NCBI GenBank assembly: GCA_000004695.1
Contig: CM000151.3
Location: 7,616,001-7,680,000 of the forward strand
DNA: 64,000 bases
From: Dictyostelium discoideum
Taxonomy: Eukaryota
Reading direction: 5' to 3'
Positions 35,692 through 64,000 of the stretch are shown one piece after another. Numbering within the stretch: the first letter of the stretch is position 1; each line of letters begins with the position of its first letter. Below the pieces are notes generated by a model. The model was not told the origin of the DNA and searched no databases. It saw only the letters and a list, made by a program, of their open reading frames with translations. A program made the position numbers and the translations under genes.

Positions 35692-35927
35692 ATTTTTTTT
35701 TAAAGATTTATAATTAAAATATTTGTTTTTTGGGATCTTATTTTTATTTTCTGTTTTGTTTCATTTATTTTACCAAAGTTTTTTTTTATTAACCCTCAAT
35801 TTCAGGGCTTAATGTTTTTATTGTTTGAAAGCCTTCGATAAATGTTTTATATTATTTTCTTAATATTTTTTTCACAAAAAAATTACAACAAAAATTTTCT
35901 TAAATAACCAAAAATCATATGATTATA

Positions 35928-36000
35928 GCTCGATTAGCTCAGTCGGCAGAGCGTGGTGCTAATAACGCCACGGTCGCAGGTTCGATCCCTGCATCGAGCA
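35928..36000 (+). tRNA. tRNA-Ile (anticodon AAU)
   Basis: GCTCGATTAGCTCAGTCGGCAGAGCGTGGTGCTAATAACGCCACGGTCGCAGGTTCGATCCCTGCATCGAGCA. Features: 7-bp acceptor stem, D arm, anticodon stem TGGTG/CGCCA with loop CTAATAA (anticodon AAT), T arm with GGTTCGATCC B box, discriminator A. Confidence 0.9.
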
Positions 36001-36031
36001 ATCATCTTTATGGGGAATTGAAACGATCAAA

Positions 36032-36043
36032 GGTTCGATTTCC
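36032..36043 (+). promoter_or_regulatory. External B box (exB) downstream of tRNA-Ile
   Basis: GGTTCGATTTCC, 32 bp past the tRNA 3' end, duplicates the internal B-box consensus GGTTCGAnnCC. This is the characteristic dictyostelid exB element. Confidence 0.55.
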
Positions 36044-36506
36044 TTTGGATACACGTTCTTTGGTGCTTCCAAATCTTATCTCCAATTGGCCATCTAATCA
36101 ATTAAAATTTTTTTTGATTATATAATTTAACTTTTTTAACTTTCAATACTAACATATTTCAAAAGTAGATACCTAAAAAATGAAAATAATAATAATAATA
36201 AAAATAATATTAACTCTAAATTTTAACTAGACTATTTTGAAATTGTAAATTAAAATTTACAATTTGAAAATTCAAAATAAAAAAAGGAATAACTTTTTTA
36301 CATTTTGAAATTAAAATTCATAAATAAAACTATTAATTATTGTTATTTCCTTTAATATATAAACTTTGATTAATCAATATTATAAAAAAAATTAAAATTA
36401 ATTGCTGTTTATTTCTTTTAATGGATAAACACTGATTAATCAATATTAATAATAATTAAATAAAATTTTTATAATTAAATAATCAATATTAAATAATAAA
36501 CAAACT

Positions 36507-57900: not shown

Positions 57901-59094
57901 GATTTAAAAAATTTATAGTTGGTTGATTTGTAAATGATTGAAGTTTTCTTGAAAAGTCAACAAGATTAAGTATTTCGGGTTGTACTGGATTTGGAGATAA
58001 ATTTCCTGATGTACCAATTGTGTAACCACTTGTAGTTGTTGTGGTTGGATCAATTGAAGTGGTTGATCCTGATGTACCACTTGAGTAACCACTTGAGTAA
58101 CCACTTGTACTTGTTGTAGTTGGATCAAAAGAAGTTGTTGATCCTGATGTACCACTTGTACTTGTTGTAGTTGGATCAATCAAAGTTGTTGATCCTGATG
58201 TTCCACTTGTACCTATTGTGGTTGGATCATTTGAAGTTGTTGATCCTAATGTTCCACTTGTACCCATTGTAGTTGGATCATTTGAAGTTGTTGAGCCTGA
58301 TGTTCCACTTGTACTTGTTGTAGTTGGATCATTTGAAGTCGTTGGTCCTGATGTTCCACTTGTACCTATTGTGGTTGGATCATTTGAGGTCGTTGATCCT
58401 AATGTACCACTTGTACCTATTGTGGTTGGGTCATTTGAAGTCGTTGATCCCAATGTTCCACTTGTACCTATTGTGGTTGGATCATTTGAAGTTGTAGATA
58501 AGCCAGAACTCAATGTTCTTGTCACTGAGCCACTTGAACCTAAAGAATTAGCTGTCCCAGTAGTTAATGCGAATTGAGTTGTTGATGTCGCACCGGGTGC
58601 AATAACACTGCCCAAAGGTATTGTTGAATTTAATGTCCTTTTAAAAAAACAAATTTAATTAATAATTTAATAATTATTTTAATTTTATTAATATTAATTA
58701 TTTTTTTTTTTTTTAAAACTTACAAACTCTTTACTGTTTTTAATGTCGAATCACAAACAATTCCAATATTTGAACATGCTTTTCCTAAAGACAAATTCCA
58801 TGCAAATCCATATTGGATTGCTATCCACCAAAGAGTATTTACTATATTATATATTTTAAAAAAAAAAAATGTAATTATTATTATTATTTATTTTTTTTTT
58901 TTTTTTTTTTTTTTTTTTATCGTCAAATATTTTTGTGAAAATAAACGAAAAACATTGGAAAAATAAATGAAATTATGTTTAAAAAAATTCCACTTACGTT
59001 CATTTTCATCAGTAATATCAGATTTAACAATATTATTAAAAGTTGTTAAAATTAATATTAAAATATAAATATAATTAACAACTCTTTTATACAT
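54938..59094 (-). CDS. Type I membrane glycoprotein with signal peptide, mucin-like Thr/Ser tandem repeats, LRR region, EGF-like Cys-rich module and TM anchor, 6 exons: join(59094..58998,58841..58724,58637..~57882,~57799..57713,57600..57325,57245..54938), about 1213 aa
   Basis: Exon 1 is MYKRVVNYIYILILILTTFNNIVKS, a signal peptide, ending at GAAC|GTAAGT. Exon 3 carries about 10 tandem 13-aa units TSNDPTTIGTSGT(L/S)GS and ends at a GTGAGT donor. Exons 4-6 encode leucine-rich repeats (LTIYTEAPISIFNMNNLTTVS..., LSGSIP, IDLSNNQFTSIP), an EGF-like module CSPSCENGGTCIEGQCNCGVGDYYGPTC, and a TM anchor AWVIPVAVVVPIVAITVLALTGYVLF followed by KKRFYIYRD. All phases are consistent (1,2,2,2,2) and the total is divisible by 3. 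Coordinates around 57800-57900 are ±1. Confidence 0.75.
58090..58490 (-). repeat. 39-bp coding tandem repeat, about 10 units encoding TSNDPTTIGTSGT(L/S)GS, within exon 3 of the mucin/LRR gene
   Basis: Near-perfect nucleotide-level repeats (ccacttgtacc[tc]attgt[ag]gttggatcatttgaag[tc][tc]gttga[tg]cctgatgt...). They generate the in-frame antisense ORFs 57913..58179 and 58218..58577. Confidence 0.9.
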
Positions 59095-59468
59095 TTTCAA
59101 TCTTTATATTTTGTAAGGTATTTTTGTGATACGAACAAAAAATTAAAAAAAAAAATTAAAAAAAACTTTTTTGATAAGTTAAAAAAACATTTAAAAAGAT
59201 TTTTTTATTTTTTTTTTTTTTTGATTGTAAAAAAAAAGCTTCAAATCGGAACGGTGAAAATTTTTCAAAGAAGATATTTATTTTTATTTTTTTTTTTATT
59301 TTTTTTTTTTTTTCAGATTTTGTTAATTGGAAAAAAAATATCTTTTACTTTTGATTAAAAAAAAAAAGTAAAAAAAAATAAAAATTCTATTAAAAATTAT
59401 ATTTGAAATAAAATAAATTATTTTTTTTTTTTTTTTTTTTATTTATCAATGCAGATATAAAGCATTTT

Positions 59469-59507
<39 letters not shown>

Positions 59508-59949
59508 AAGAATTTATATTTAAAGGGAAAAATGAATTGTAGTTTATTTATTTAGAAAATAAAAATAAAAATTTGGAAAATTAATAAATAAAAATAAATA
59601 ATTATTATTTAATATTTTTTACCATTGTTATTTTTTTTTTACCTATTTTTTTTATATAAAATTAATAGTATAATTTCTTTGTTAAATTATTTATTTAAAA
59701 AAAATTGTTTGCATGGTGTGAAGCTTACCTTTTATTAAGTTATAAATTATTTATTTAAATTATTTTGTTCAACTTCAACAATTATTTTTTTTTTTTTTTT
59801 TTTTTTCAATATTAATCAGTTTTCTATCCGATTGGGTGGTAATTGCAGCTTGTTTTTTTTTTTTTTTAATAAAAAACATGACACTCGGCTATGGAATTCG
59901 CCACCAGAAATCCACTCCCGAATTCTGAAGGGTCGCCGATTTATTAGTG

Positions 59950-59961
59950 AATCGAACCAGC
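59950..59961 (-). promoter_or_regulatory. External B box (exB) downstream of tRNA-Asp
   Basis: Minus-strand GGTTCGATTCAC, about 28 bp past the tRNA 3' end. Confidence 0.5.
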
Positions 59962-59987
59962 GTACATATTTTGTATTTGGATAAAAC

Positions 59988-60059
59988 CTCCCTGTCCGGG
60001 AATTGAACCCGGGCCTTTCGCGTGACAGGCGAAAATCCTCACCACTAGACCAACAAGGA
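59988..60059 (-). tRNA. tRNA-Asp (anticodon GUC)
   Basis: Minus-strand sequence TCCTTGTTGGTCTAGTGGTGAGGATTTTCGCCTGTCACGCGAAAGGCCCGGGTTCAATTCCCGGACAGGGA. Acceptor stem TCCTTGT/ACAGGGA. Anticodon stem TTCGC/GCGAA with loop CTGTCAC (anticodon GTC). T arm CCCGG GTTCAATTCC, discriminator G. Close to the metazoan tRNA-Asp consensus. Confidence 0.9.
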
Positions 60060-60089
60060 TAAAGATGATGATTTATTTTAAAATTATGT

Positions 60090-60850
60090 AAAATTTATAT
60101 AGCTTTAAAGACTAAACCAAGTCAAACCCAAATACGAAAACAAACAAAAATTAAAAGTAATCTATAGAAACATGATGGATATCAAATACAAGGGATGGAA
60201 CAAACACCAGCCAACAACAGGTCAAAAACTGATTCAAAAGAACATTAATCACCCAATTCTACCATTCAGAGAAGCCAGATCAATCACAACTATCAAAGGA
60301 AGAGACTTAGCATGGAGATATCTACTCAAGGCACTTCCAAAACACCATGGGGAGAATTGCCACTCATGTAAAGAAGAAGAATCGTCTATGCACATCTTCT
60401 TCGAATGCAAATCAATAAAACAGAATATCGACTCAATCTATCAAAAGGTCTGTAAAGACTCCAACAACACTTACCACGGTCCATGGAGCGAAAAAGTTCT
60501 CGGAAAACTACTCACACCATTCTCATCAAATCTGATAGGAGCCATTATGGAATCGATATGGTACAGAAGAAATCAAATAAAATTCAACGATAACACTACA
60601 ATAATAACAGAGAACCAAATAATTCATAAAATCAAAAAAGCGAGAGATGCCGAATGGGATAGAACAAGAAAGATAGTAGAAAAACAACTACGTCAAGAAC
60701 TAAGATGCACTGATAACCGAGAGTCAATCAATCGGACCGCATCAATAAAAAGAAGACTCGAAAAATTCAGCCACAACTGGAACTCGAAACTCATGACCAT
60801 AAACATCCCGGAACACTTCATACCATACTGCTCATATAACACCAACTACT

Positions 60851-60893
<43 letters not shown>

Positions 60894-61624
60894 ATAACAA
60901 TAATAATAATAATAATAATATAATAATAATAATAATATAATAATAATAATAATATAATAATAATAATAATAATAAAAAAAAATAAGAATAACAAGAAAAA
61001 AAGAAAAAAAAAAAAAAAAAAAAAAAAAAAAACAGATAAACTCTCCTAGAACACACTCAAATTGAGTGATGTTATTAAAAAAAAAAATATATAGCTTTAA
61101 CAACATGCCATTCCAACAGTGTGGGGAAGATGAGACTTCAGAACATATATTCTTCAACTGCAAAGCCCACATCAAAAACACACAAGAAATCTTCATATAC
61201 ACCCTAACTAAGTGTGGACACACCACTCACACCTGGAATGTGAAGATTTTAAACCATCTACAAATTGCACTAGTAGCCAATTTAATAGCTATTATATTCG
61301 AAAAAATCTGGCACAAAAGAAATAAACTCATTCACGATGAAAAAGAAATAATAATTCACAGACATCAAGTCATACGTGAACTAATTAAAACACAAAGAGC
61401 TGCATGGGACAGGACACAAGCGGTTATAAACAAAACATTAAGAATCAAATCAAAGCAACGGCCAGAAGAACAAAATAAATTAGACTCACTAATCTCGCTA
61501 AAGCTATTACAATTTAGCAGACAATGGAACTCACCTCTTCACGCAATAGAACTTCCTAAACATCTCAAAAAATACAATAATTCACTCAGTACTTTCTATA
61601 AATAAAAAAAAAAAAATAAAAAAA

Positions 61625-61673
<49 letters not shown>

Positions 61674-62230
61674 GGAACCCAAGTTAATCAGAAAATTTCT
61701 AGATTTTTAACTTTTTAAAGAAAAATATAAAAGATAGAAAGAAAATAAAATGAAAATCACAAACAACACCACAAATATTAAGCAACACAAATGCCTACAA
61801 AAAATAAGCGAAATTGTGGATAAAACTCAATTAAAAAAAAAACAATTCAAATACGTCATAAACATCAATCACGAACCAGACGATAAAATAAAAAAAGATT
61901 TAGAAAAAAGTTTGGACAAAAAAGATGTTTTAATCAAAAGTAATAATACAATTCAAAATTCGAAACAAAAAAAAAAAAAAAAAAAAAAAAAGGTAAACCA
62001 ACCCCTCTTTTAGAGACCCTGTAAAAAAAAACTAAAAATAAAATGAGATCTAACATCTCAAGGAGAAGCAACTAATAATTGCGTTATCCAATTCAAAAAA
62101 AAAATTTATATAGCTTCATCGAGCAAGAATTTCTCGAATTCAAAAAAAAAAAATTTATATAGCCAATTGTTATTCCATTCAAAAAAAAATTTATTCAGCC
62201 AATAAGTTAATTAAAGGAAAAACTGGTATT
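60090..62230 (+). mobile_element. Stack of 5'-truncated tRNA-gene-targeted non-LTR retrotransposon (TRE-type, probably TRE5-like) 3' fragments, about 35-50 bp upstream of tRNA-Asp
   Basis: Unit 1 is 60114..~61065: ORF 60172..60855 with a C-x2-C-x7-H-x4-C zinc-knuckle (CHSCKEEESSMHIFFEC), then IWYRRNQIKF...AEWDRTRKIV, ending in A(38) plus (TAA)n. Unit 2 is ~61079..61670: the homologous ORF 61066..61605 (CGEDETSEHIFFNC, IWHKRNKLIH...AAWDRTQAVINK, about 35% identical to unit 1), ending in A(~55). Unit 3 is 61671..62090, with an ORF and A(28). Each unit is preceded by A(n)TTTATATAGC, at 60098, 61088, 62101, 62149 and, degenerate, 62188. Orientation is constant, with the poly(A) tails pointing away from the tRNA. 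Confidence 0.6.
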
Positions 62231-62364
62231 TTATTTCAAAATAAATGAAATATATTAGAAAAACGATTCTTTTTTAAAAAATTTGTTTTCAGTTATTGAT
62301 ATTTGACAGTTTTTTTCTTTTTCAAAAAAAAAAATTTTTATTTTTTTTATTTATTATTTTTTAT

Positions 62365-63636
62365 TTATTTTTTTTTAATTATTATATCTTTTAAATCATC
62401 TGGAATTGGATGATTATAATTACGATCAACAATTATTTTTTTTAAATTATTTGAGAAAATATTTGAAGTTAATTTAGGAAGATGATTAAAACAATAACCC
62501 ATTTTAATTTTAATACAAGATTCTGGAATATCATTTGGTTTAATCTTTTGATTAAAGTTAATTGAAAAATGAATAGTCTTTACTGAAGAAGGAAATGAAC
62601 CTTGAATCAATGGTTTATTAAATGAAGATAGGAATCTAATTTTTTCAACACCAAAACTAATTGCACCAGGTTTAATTGGTTGATTGAACGAATGTAATGT
62701 TAATTTTTTAACTGATAATGGAATTGCACCAATTTCAATATCAGAATTGAAATCATTCATTTTTAAAAATTGAACACTTGATGGAATATCACCTTTTTTC
62801 AATGAATGGTCATATTTTGATAGTGTTAAATGCGTTACTGATGATGGTATAATATCTGATCCAAGTTGTTGATTATAGCAACCTAAACTCAAATAAGTAA
62901 TACCATTAGGTAAATCACCAGCATATAAAGGTTGATTATATTCAAATAGTGATAAATCAATTAAAGATGATGGTAATAAATTTGGTTTCAATGGTTGATC
63001 GAAATCTGAAAGCATCAGCCATTCGATTGAATTTGGGATTGAATTTAGTTGTAAAGGTTTATTAAATTTTACTAAATACAATTCAACCAATGATGATGGT
63101 AAATCGTTTGGATTAATATCATGATTAAAGTTTTCCAAAACTAAACATTTTAAATTTTTTAATACATTGAATGAATCTTTTCCAATTGGTTGATTGAATA
63201 ATGATAATGTTAATTTTGTTAAACTTTCTGGTAAAACCATTGGTTTAATGATTTGGTCATATTTAATTAACTCCAATTCTTCAATTGATGATGGTATTAT
63301 ATCAATTTCTAATTCTTTATTTAATTGAGTTAATGATAATTTTTTTAAAGATGTTAATGGTTTTAAATCTTCACTTTTGAATTGACCCTTAAATGAAATA
63401 ATCTCTAAATCAATCAATGATGATAGATCATTTAAACAACCATTTGGAAATGTAAATGGATGATATCTTAATTTTGAAATATACCCTTTATTTGCATGAT
63501 CTCTTAATTCTGTTAATTTATTAATTTTAATTTCAACTTGATAATTATCTCTAAATAATTCTAAATGTTTGGTAATTTCATTTCTAATATAAATATTTTT
63601 CCAGACTCTAAAAAATATATTTTCAAATTCTTCCAT
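62365..63636 (-). CDS. FNIP-repeat-containing protein, 423 aa
   Basis: ATG ORF made of about 14 tandem about 22-aa units of the dictyostelid FNIP repeat type (F[ND]QP[IL].....[IL]P.S[IL]..L.[LF]...FNQP...). Examples: SFNQPIKPGAISFGVEKIRF, SDFDQPLKPNLLPSSLIDLSLFEYNQPL. Confidence 0.8.
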   Translation of the reverse strand: MEEFENIFFRVWKNIYIRNEITKHLELFRDNYQVEIKINKLTELRDHANKGYISKLRYHPFTFPNGCLNDLSSLIDLEIISFKGQFKSEDLKPLTSLKKLSLTQLNKELEIDIIPSSIEELELIKYDQIIKPMVLPESLTKLTLSLFNQPIGKDSFNVLKNLKCLVLENFNHDINPNDLPSSLVELYLVKFNKPLQLNSIPNSIEWLMLSDFDQPLKPNLLPSSLIDLSLFEYNQPLYAGDLPNGITYLSLGCYNQQLGSDIIPSSVTHLTLSKYDHSLKKGDIPSSVQFLKMNDFNSDIEIGAIPLSVKKLTLHSFNQPIKPGAISFGVEKIRFLSSFNKPLIQGSFPSSVKTIHFSINFNQKIKPNDIPESCIKIKMGYCFNHLPKLTSNIFSNNLKKIIVDRNYNHPIPDDLKDIIIKKK

Positions 63637-64000
63637 TATTTATTTTTAAAAATTATTTAATAATAGTAATAATAATGAAATATAAAAAAAAAAAAATTCA
63701 GTTTTCAAAAAAGTTTTAAAAATAAATTGAAAAACAAATCGAACTTTTTTTAGTTTTTTTTTTTTTTTTAATCACAAATTAATTAATTAAATTTTGTTTT
63801 TTATTTTATTTTTTTTTTTATTTAGTTTTTTAAGGAAGATTTAAGGGAAATTGGTGTGGTGGAAATTTGTGGTGAATTTTTTTTTTTTTTTTTTTAAAGT
63901 TTTTTTTTTTTTTTTAAAGTTTTATTTTTTTTTTATTTTTATTTTTATTTTTATATTTTTTTTATTTTTATTTTTATTTTTTTTTTATTTAAAAAAAAAA

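Follow-up and report, generated by a model that had tools for sequence, protein, structure and literature searches.

TRE5-A.1, formerly called DRE, is an L1-like non-LTR retrotransposon of Dictyostelium discoideum that targets tRNA genes. On tRNA genes, TFIIIC sits at the A and B boxes and places TFIIIB upstream of the gene; the ORF1 protein of TRE5 makes contact with TFIIIB. Insertions of TRE5 are often 5'-truncated, and sometimes carry a few extra nucleotides at the 5' end.

The published position of TRE5 elements is 47 ± 3 bp or 40-54 bp upstream of tRNA genes, in a strict 5'-to-5' orientation (PMC5391098, PMC5911963), and their target-site duplications (TSDs) range from 10 to 16 bp (PMC9012585). 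TRE5-A.1 has the structure AB-ORF1/ORF2-BC, in which the B-module of 290 bp holds the ORF1 start and the C-module measures 134-137 bp (PMC3159450). A TRE is carried by 61% of tRNA genes, and where a TRE arrives at a tRNA gene that already has one, the typical result is a TRE-TRE tandem in which the resident element is not entered (PMC5391098). Tagged TRE5-A lands between the target and the resident element (PMC5391098, PMC9012585), as in the case of a new copy placed between the target and a resident TRE5-A.2 (PMC9012585, Fig. 1D).

The tRNA-Asp gene and the stack upstream of it

The window, that is, the whole 64-kb stretch of DNA that was analysed, contains a tRNA-Ile(AAT) gene and a tRNA-Asp(GUC) gene. 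The lengths of both genes and the spacing of 24060 bp between them are exactly those listed for IleAAU-7 (chr2 7651928-7652000) and AspGUC-10 (chr2 7675988-7676059) in the S2 Table of PMC5391098, and the two were therefore identified as these genes of AX4 chromosome 2, which places the window at 7,616,001-7,680,000 of that chromosome. Contigs of TRE5-A(bsr) have been mapped experimentally at AspGUC-10 (3, 49 and 8; S2 Table, PMC5391098). The tRNA was the sole match in an Rfam scan of positions 59000-62400. Its promoter boxes were read from the sequence against the consensus TRRYNNARYNG (A box) and GTTCRANNC (B box) quoted in PMC5391098; external B boxes of dictyostelid tRNA genes are described in PMC5911963.

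35928-36000, plus strand: tRNA-Ile(AAT), IleAAU-7 (ARAGORN)
59948-59958, minus strand: external B box of tRNA-Asp, fitting GTTCRANNC, read from the sequence
59988-60059, minus strand: tRNA-Asp(GUC), AspGUC-10, the target gene (ARAGORN; Rfam RF00005, 61 bits)
60009 to 59999: internal B box GGTTCAATTCC of tRNA-Asp, read from the sequence
tRNA +8 to +18: A box TGGTCTAGTGG of tRNA-Asp, read from the sequence
62365-63636: FNIP neighbour gene

The protein of the FNIP neighbour, rebuilt in spliced form, has 1210 aa. The interval from this gene to a ComC-like gene covers about 7,675,000-7,678,400 of AX4 chromosome 2.

A stack of inserts starts 35 bp upstream of tRNA-Asp +1 and runs from 60094 to about 62200, entirely on the plus strand. 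All four inserts face the minus-strand tRNA gene head-to-head with their oligo(A) ends distal, which is also the orientation at four other loci (L004, L006, L007 and L008). These ends are A11 in unit 1, A10 in unit 2, A12 in mini-tail 3 and A9 in mini-tail 4. The 5' junction of unit 1 is 49-50 bp from tRNA +1 (60059), and the three older junctions, once reconstructed, are at -45 to -47; three of the events have their first-strand nick at -34/-35, and the remaining event at -36/-37. Position, orientation, oligo(A), 5' truncation, TSD, extra 5' nucleotides and ORF2 C-terminus are all those of TRE5. An earlier note on this DNA had placed TRE-type tails, all in the same orientation, about 35-50 bp upstream of tRNA-Asp, and the junctions and orientation bear this out. 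The stack was very likely built by serial target-primed reverse transcription of TRE5 non-LTR retrotransposons at one RNA polymerase III gene.

Three exact copies of the 10-mer TTTATATAGC are present in the 64 kb (60094, 62105 and 62154), with an expectation of 0.29, and three or more copies were seen in 0 of 100 shuffles. Degenerate copies are present at 61086 (AATATATAGC) and 62190 (TTTATTCAGC). A run of 9-12 A directly precedes each of the four distal copies, the proximal copy (60094) being the exception. Five copies had been claimed for this motif; the five sites are there, but only three are exact and two are degenerate, and the coordinates first given were 0-5 bp off.

Identity of the inserts

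The two units and two mini-tails comprise the following parts.

60109-61087, plus strand: unit 1, a 5'-truncated non-A TRE5 (TRE5-B/C group), about 0.98 kb
60109-60110, plus strand: extra 5' nucleotides AG of unit 1 (homology to the L004 copy begins at 60111)
60172-60855, plus strand: ORF of unit 1, an ORF2 C-terminus with a CCHC knuckle; stop at 60853-60855
60854-60891, plus strand: internal A-run of unit 1
61034-61076, plus strand: 43-nt tail of unit 1
61077-61087, plus strand: terminal A11 of unit 1
61101-62104, plus strand: unit 2, a single 5'-truncated element assigned to TRE5-A.1, about 1.0 kb
61105-61605, plus strand: ORF of unit 2, an ORF2 C-terminus, DDB_G0277297, identical to P0033 / XP_642702.1
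61606-61669, plus strand: A-rich run of unit 2
61670 to about 61957, plus strand: B-module of unit 2 with the ORF1 start (ATG 61750)
about 61958 to 62094, plus strand: C-module of unit 2
62095-62104, plus strand: terminal A10 of unit 2
62115-62153, plus strand: mini-tail 3, TTCATCGAGCAAGAATTTCTCGAATTC followed by A12, with TTTATATAGC on either side
62164-62189, plus strand: mini-tail 4, CAATTGTTATTCCATTC followed by A9 (compare TAATTGCGTTATCCAATTC)

Judged by its sequence, unit 2 is a TRE5-A.1, with which its module order, ORF1 start, module lengths and C-module positions agree. The B-module with the ORF1 start and the C-module form its 3' UTR, and together (61670-62094) they measure 425 bp, compared with the published 290 + 134/137 bp. 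The ORF at 61750-62013 corresponds to residues 1-67 of TRE5-A ORF1, which has 444 aa (67/68 identical). Four C-module stem positions that were mutated in PMC3159450, numbered from the 3' end (T15, C26, A35 and C38), all match when counted from 62094, which is the case for only 3 of 1300 offsets. The order ORF2 end-A(n)-B-A(n)-C-A(n) recurs in L008, in the TRE5-A.2 of L001 and, in a deleted version, in L007. At the 5' end, unit 2 has the extra nucleotides TA(A) at 61098-61100. Its ORF is 98% identical to P0009 (AX4 copies), and the first Cys of its knuckle is replaced by Phe (MPFQQCG, compared with MPCQQCG). More distant are the L007 copy (P0011, 78% identical to unit 2), an older TRE5-A copy of D. 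discoideum, and the L008 copy (P0013, 60%), a TRE5-A from the sibling species D. cf. discoideum. Both had been considered as TRE5-C-type copies that could identify mini-tail 3, and were rejected as such because both are TRE5-A.

The knuckle of unit 1 has the spacing C-x2-C-x7-H-x4-C (CHSCKEEESSMHIFFEC), and its 3' UTR is (TAA)n-like and A-rich. Another assembly (L004) contains a second copy of this element, which, like unit 1, lies head-to-head with a tRNA gene, here 47 bp upstream of one for tRNA-Ala; over 978 nt the DNA of the two copies is 96.6% identical, and their 227-aa ORFs do not differ. The L004 copy retains the internal A-run, the (TAA)n-like stretch, the A-rich stretch and the 43-nt tail, so the internal A-run and the microsatellite are sequence of the element itself. 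A relative that is 53% identical (P0004) directly follows an RVT_1 ORF upstream of a tRNA-Arg gene (L006) and has a related tail. The protein matches to the ORFs of both units come from D. discoideum, and homologues are named RT zinc-binding domain proteins; a Pfam search with the ORF fragments returned no significant family. The ORF2 fragments of units 1 and 2 are homologous, with 35% identity over 155 aa (E = 6e-30), the value that had been estimated beforehand for these C-terminal regions.

Unit 1 resembles TRE5-B and TRE5-C in targeting position, orientation, 13-bp TSD and an ORF2 C-terminus of CCHC type, and this C-terminus is 35-38% identical to that of TRE5-A. It is without a 3' B-module, as published for both TRE5-B and TRE5-C. 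The C-module of TRE5-C is about 78% identical to that of TRE5-A, and TRE5-B is without a C-module. The tail of unit 1 is about 72% identical to the last 87 nt of the TRE5-A C-module, in a gapped and A-rich alignment. Two non-A TRE5 are named in the literature, whereas the D. discoideum assemblies contain at least three non-A ORF2 C-terminal lineages (those of unit 1, P0004 and P0007), with mutual identities of 53-65%.

In a 3'-anchored alignment, the bases preceding the A-run of each mini-tail were compared with the 3' terminus of TRE5-A, and the scores were set against those of 337 controls preceding other A-runs of the window. Mini-tail 4 scored 9.0, a value reached by 0/337 controls, and all of its 17 nt align; it is probably an extremely 5'-truncated TRE5-A-like 3' end, and the oldest event of the stack. 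Mini-tail 3 scored 7.0, reached by 1/337 controls, and is probably likewise an extremely 5'-truncated TRE5 3' end, of 27 nt. Beyond its last ~11 nt it matches none of the element sequences compared, and no second copy of the 27-mer was found in the window or in the retrieved loci. In the earlier note these two hits were treated only as repeats of the motif and not as micro-tails of 17-27 nt.

Target-site duplications and the order of events

The copies of the motif coincide with the boundaries of the inserts, where they form the following TSDs.

60094-60108, plus strand: proximal TSD copy TTTATATAGCTTTAA, -35 to -49 from tRNA +1; repeat family D19
60096-60108, plus strand: left TSD of unit 1, TATATAGCTTTAA, inside the proximal copy
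61088-61100, plus strand: right TSD of unit 1, TATATAGCTTTAA; family D19
62105-62116, plus strand: right TSD of unit 2, TTTATATAGCTT, the last 2 nt of which are nt 1-2 of mini-tail 3
62154-62163, plus strand: TSD between mini-tails 3 and 4, TTTATATAGC
62190-62203, plus strand: distal degenerate TSD TTTATTCAGC, then CAAT, running into the original upstream flank; family D18

The TSDs measure 13 bp for unit 1, 12 bp for unit 2, 10 bp for mini-tail 3 and 10-14 bp for mini-tail 4. Because they overlap, they give the order of events directly. The right TSD of unit 1 consists of 10 nt of the left TSD of unit 2 plus the 3 junction nucleotides (TAA) at the 5' end of unit 2, so unit 1 is the younger of the two; the left TSD of unit 2 (TTTATATAGCTT) is now split by unit 1. 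The TSD of unit 2 contains nt 1-2 of mini-tail 3, which must therefore have been in place before unit 2. The TSD of mini-tail 3 is TTTATATAGC without extension into another insert. That of mini-tail 4 is TTTAT(AT/TC)AGC, optionally with CAAT, again without further extension, and its distal copy has two mismatches. As the overlapping TSDs reach into the junction of the previous insert, the order of arrival would be mini-tail 4, mini-tail 3, TRE5-A.1 and finally the non-A TRE5. We infer four integration events, the oldest being the most distal from the tRNA gene. At least 4-5 independent hits at exactly the same position had been proposed; a number of about four stands, with the first nicks within 2 bp. 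The reconstructed empty site reads ...GTAAAATTTAT(AT/TC)AGCCAATAAGTT..., and the predicted form of the allele is GTAAAATTTAT(AT/TC)AGCCAATAAG.

In each round, the ORF2 endonuclease would first cut the strand that is sense for the tRNA, some 35 bp upstream of +1; copying of the element RNA would begin at its oligo(A)/3' UTR end, and a second nick 10-16 bp further out would give rise to the TSD. Each newcomer would thus enter the proximal TSD copy, between the tRNA gene and the older element, pushing the older copies outward and duplicating the same ~10-13 nt once more. The primer end expected from the inferred nick (…TATAAA-3') is T-rich only if as many as 4 A of the flank are counted as TSD, which leaves an ambiguity of up to 4 nt in where the nick falls.

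The record of repeated targeting would be lost if TTTATATAGC were a conserved 3' or 5' end of the elements themselves. The motif does always adjoin an element end, and A-runs with T-rich sequence after them are frequent in this genome. In independent copies of both element types, however, the terminal oligo(A) is followed by duplications that are specific to each locus and unrelated to the motif: at L004, the copy of unit 1 has its own 12-bp TSD TCCTATAAAATA and not TTTATATAGC, and in the other TRE5-A copies (L001, L007 and L008) the oligo(A) is followed by CCAACAAGG, TAATTATTT or GGCTCGTTC, and in none by TTTATATAGC. Since the sequence at this point differs in the other copies of these elements, TTTATATAGC belongs to the target and not to the element. 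Moreover, the motif has no further occurrence in the window, and its proximal copy (60094) lies between the tRNA gene and unit 1 with no element 3' end before it. An origin of the motif in the elements is thus extremely improbable, and its reading in the earlier note as a regenerated duplication of the target, which was to fall if the motif were part of the element consensus, held when compared with independent element copies. Hardly any likelihood is left either for that note's account of the inserts as three ORF2 3' fragments from three subfamilies, each with its own poly(A). New sequence does begin after three long A-runs, and there is a third ORF at 61750-62013. This ORF is not ORF2, as it matches the TRE5-A ORF1 N-terminus at 67/68 positions and is encoded by the duplicated B-module. 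The succession ORF2 end-A(n)-B-A(n)-C is the published AB-ORF1/ORF2-BC (PMC3159450) and recurs in other copies, including that of the sibling species. The A-runs at 60854-60891, 61606-61669 and 61966-61992 were rejected as element ends because they recur internally in independent copies, and no TSD copy follows those ending at 61669 or 61992. There are accordingly only two ORF2 fragments, from one non-A TRE5 and one TRE5-A.1, and the supposed third unit (61670-62104) is the B- and C-module 3' UTR of unit 2.

An improbable, though less remote, alternative is that only two events took place (units 1 and 2), and that the units at 62105-62203 arose from the 3' junction of unit 2 by local duplication or slippage, followed by divergence. 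The source would be the junction …CCAATTC-A(n)-TTTATATAGC, in AT-rich DNA. Three units share a block of ~23-30 nt, C(C/G)AATTC-A(9-12)-TTTAT(AT/TC)AGC (family D18), the repeat periods, 49 and 36 bp, are short, and mini-tail 3 is without an element match beyond its terminal ~11 nt, all of which would suit such an origin. Simple duplication cannot, however, yield the interiors of the units (20 nt and 11 nt), which are mutually unrelated, and the alignment of mini-tail 4 to the TRE5-A terminus over its whole length speaks for a separate insertion. Copies made by slippage would also have to postdate unit 2, whereas the TSD of unit 2 implies that mini-tail 3 came first. Serial integration by TRE5 elements is hence the preferred reading for the mini-tails as well as for the two larger units.

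Other alleles and comparison with known systems

Alleles of the locus were searched for by way of the FNIP neighbour gene (62365-63636), which led to one D. discoideum assembly (L001, GCA_054883475.1) and one sibling species (L002, D. cf. discoideum); an exact look-up of both unit ORFs led to the same single assembly only. Neither of these two copies of the locus is an empty-site or partial-stack allele. L001 comes from a very close relative, and its copy of the locus has 0 substitutions in the 5.5-kb left flank. Its stack is the same, differing only in homopolymer lengths and one substitution. In L002 the tRNA-Asp gene is retained and there is no TRE5 stack, but this copy was rejected as an empty site because its sequence upstream of the tRNA gene has diverged beyond alignment. 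Two direct repeats of 220 nt (93% identical) start there ~14 bp from the tRNA gene, and a duplicated piece of 39 nt contains the tRNA 5' end.

A private TRE5-A.2 of ~2.1 kb is present in L001. It has an ORF1 of 444 aa, a large deletion in ORF2 and, relative to unit 2, a deletion of 74 bp at the BC junction, compared with the published 72 bp. The element replaces window positions 59989-60048, with deletion of tRNA nt 11-72: its oligo(A) adjoins tRNA nt 10-11, its 5' end adjoins the tRNA 3' end, and ARAGORN finds no tRNA there. Between the oligo(A) junction and the external B box (59958) there are 90-91 bp; for the four canonical events, the distance to the internal B box (60009) is 85-87 bp. 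A possible explanation is that the external B box directed this insertion and that a target-site deletion accompanied it. A tentative, and on balance doubtful, proposal covering both unusual features of the locus is that the productive-looking integrations of a mere 17-27 nt plus oligo(A) represent almost wholly aborted target-primed reverse transcription with intact TSDs, and that TFIIIC on the external B box mis-registered the TRE5-A.2 of L001, so that the element destroyed its own target. Both the micro-tails of 17-27 nt and a junction inside the tRNA gene go beyond what was found described in the TRE literature. The removal of the tRNA gene by this TRE5-A.2, which would be a case of a 'safe-site' element damaging its own landmark, is the only item possibly worth a closer look.

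The stack itself adds a clean but unremarkable example to the TRE-TRE tandems known from the AX4 reference genome. The locus is part of that reference, the underlying biology has all been published, and AspGUC-10 is a gene at which tagged TRE5-A has already been mapped. As a natural record of the precision of TFIIIB/TFIIIC-guided TRE5 targeting, it comprises four events from at least two families with nicks within 2 bp. The earlier note had called such arrays informative about targeting; the record of precision is a tidy one, but its importance was overstated, as tandems of this kind are explicitly described (PMC5391098, PMC9012585).

Among single elements, TRE5-A.1 is matched by unit 2 in the ORF2 C-terminus, the 3' B-module with ORF1 start, the C-module and the oligo(A), as well as in the 12-bp TSD, the position at about -47 and the 5' end pointing toward the tRNA 5' end. 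Unit 2 differs in its 5' truncation to ~1.0 kb and in the Cys to Phe exchange of its knuckle, and otherwise has nothing unusual. The Ty3 and Ty1 elements upstream of yeast tRNA genes are similar in that TFIIIB/TFIIIC guide them and the same pol III gene is reused. They differ in being LTR elements that use an integrase and not target-primed reverse transcription, and they have no oligo(A) tails or 5' truncations. With the described TRE-TRE tandems the locus shares the placement of the newcomer between the tRNA gene and a resident element that is left undisrupted; the stack at AspGUC-10 differs from them in being four deep, in mixing families and in including two micro-tails of 17-27 nt.

Insertion into the tRNA-Asp gene of a sister assembly

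The tRNA-Asp gene (AspGUC-10) was largely replaced at the same locus of the sister D. discoideum assembly GCA_054883475.1 (L001) by an element private to that assembly:

L001 13570-15745 (reverse strand of the locus), replacing window 59989-60048: 5'-truncated TRE5-A.2

This element had the same orientation as the stacked TRE5 elements and took the place of tRNA-Asp nucleotides 11-72, and the tRNA gene was thereby destroyed. The distance from the external B box to the oligo(A) junction of the TRE5-A.2 was 90-91 bp, which is close to the 85-87 bp that separate the internal B box from the canonical nick sites of the stacked inserts. Elsewhere, five differences between the window and L001 were clustered within 23 bp (63872-63894), upstream of the FNIP-repeat gene; in the kilobases around this cluster the two sequences were identical except for homopolymer lengths.

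Close to the external B box, on its downstream side, lies a block with a GC content above that of its surroundings:

window 59853-59945: T16 run, then ~77-bp GC-richer block (…CATGACACTCGGCTATGGAATTCGCCACCAGAAATCCACTCCCGAATTCTGAAGGGTCGCCGA)

It may represent a minus-strand fragment that is 5'-truncated and ends in oligo(A), at a TRE3-like position. Rfam gave no match, and the other loci compared contain no copy of it.

The window contains a second tRNA gene:

window 35928-36000 (+): IleAAU-7 tRNA gene

No TRE5 was found upstream of it in the region examined (35700-36260), and a B-box-like sequence, GGTTCGATTTCC, is present ~30 bp downstream.

Unit 2 and the non-A TRE5 lineages

In unit 2, the 5'-truncated TRE5-A.1, the first zinc-knuckle cysteine is changed to Phe (window 61105-61125; MPFQQCG, as against MPCQQCG in other TRE5-A copies). 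This copy carries the AX4 gene annotation DDB_G0277297, a "gene" that is a dead transposon fragment. The predicted protein P0003 (ACTFIT_007334), in which a TRE5-A B-module ORF1 start is joined to an ORF2 C-terminus of the type found in unit 1 (a non-A TRE5), is probably a gene model running across a further TRE5 tandem of mixed families. In the D. discoideum assemblies, the ORF2 C-termini of non-A TRE5-like elements fall into at least three lineages (unit 1, P0004 and P0007 types), with mutual identities of 53-65%, whereas only TRE5-B and TRE5-C are named in the literature.

The orthologous locus in D. cf. discoideum

In D. cf. discoideum (L002), the orthologue of the tRNA-Asp gene was accompanied by other repeats:

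L002 11419-12440: two 220-nt direct repeats and a 39-nt tRNA duplicate

The direct repeats are 93% identical and lie 407 bp apart, and the duplicate, 927 bp away, comprises the first 27 nt of tRNA-Asp plus 12 nt of flank. This arrangement resembles what is left of a DGLT-A-like LTR element, and not of a TRE5. The direct repeats begin ~14 bp upstream of tRNA-Asp; the published insertion distance of DGLT-A is 13-33 bp upstream.
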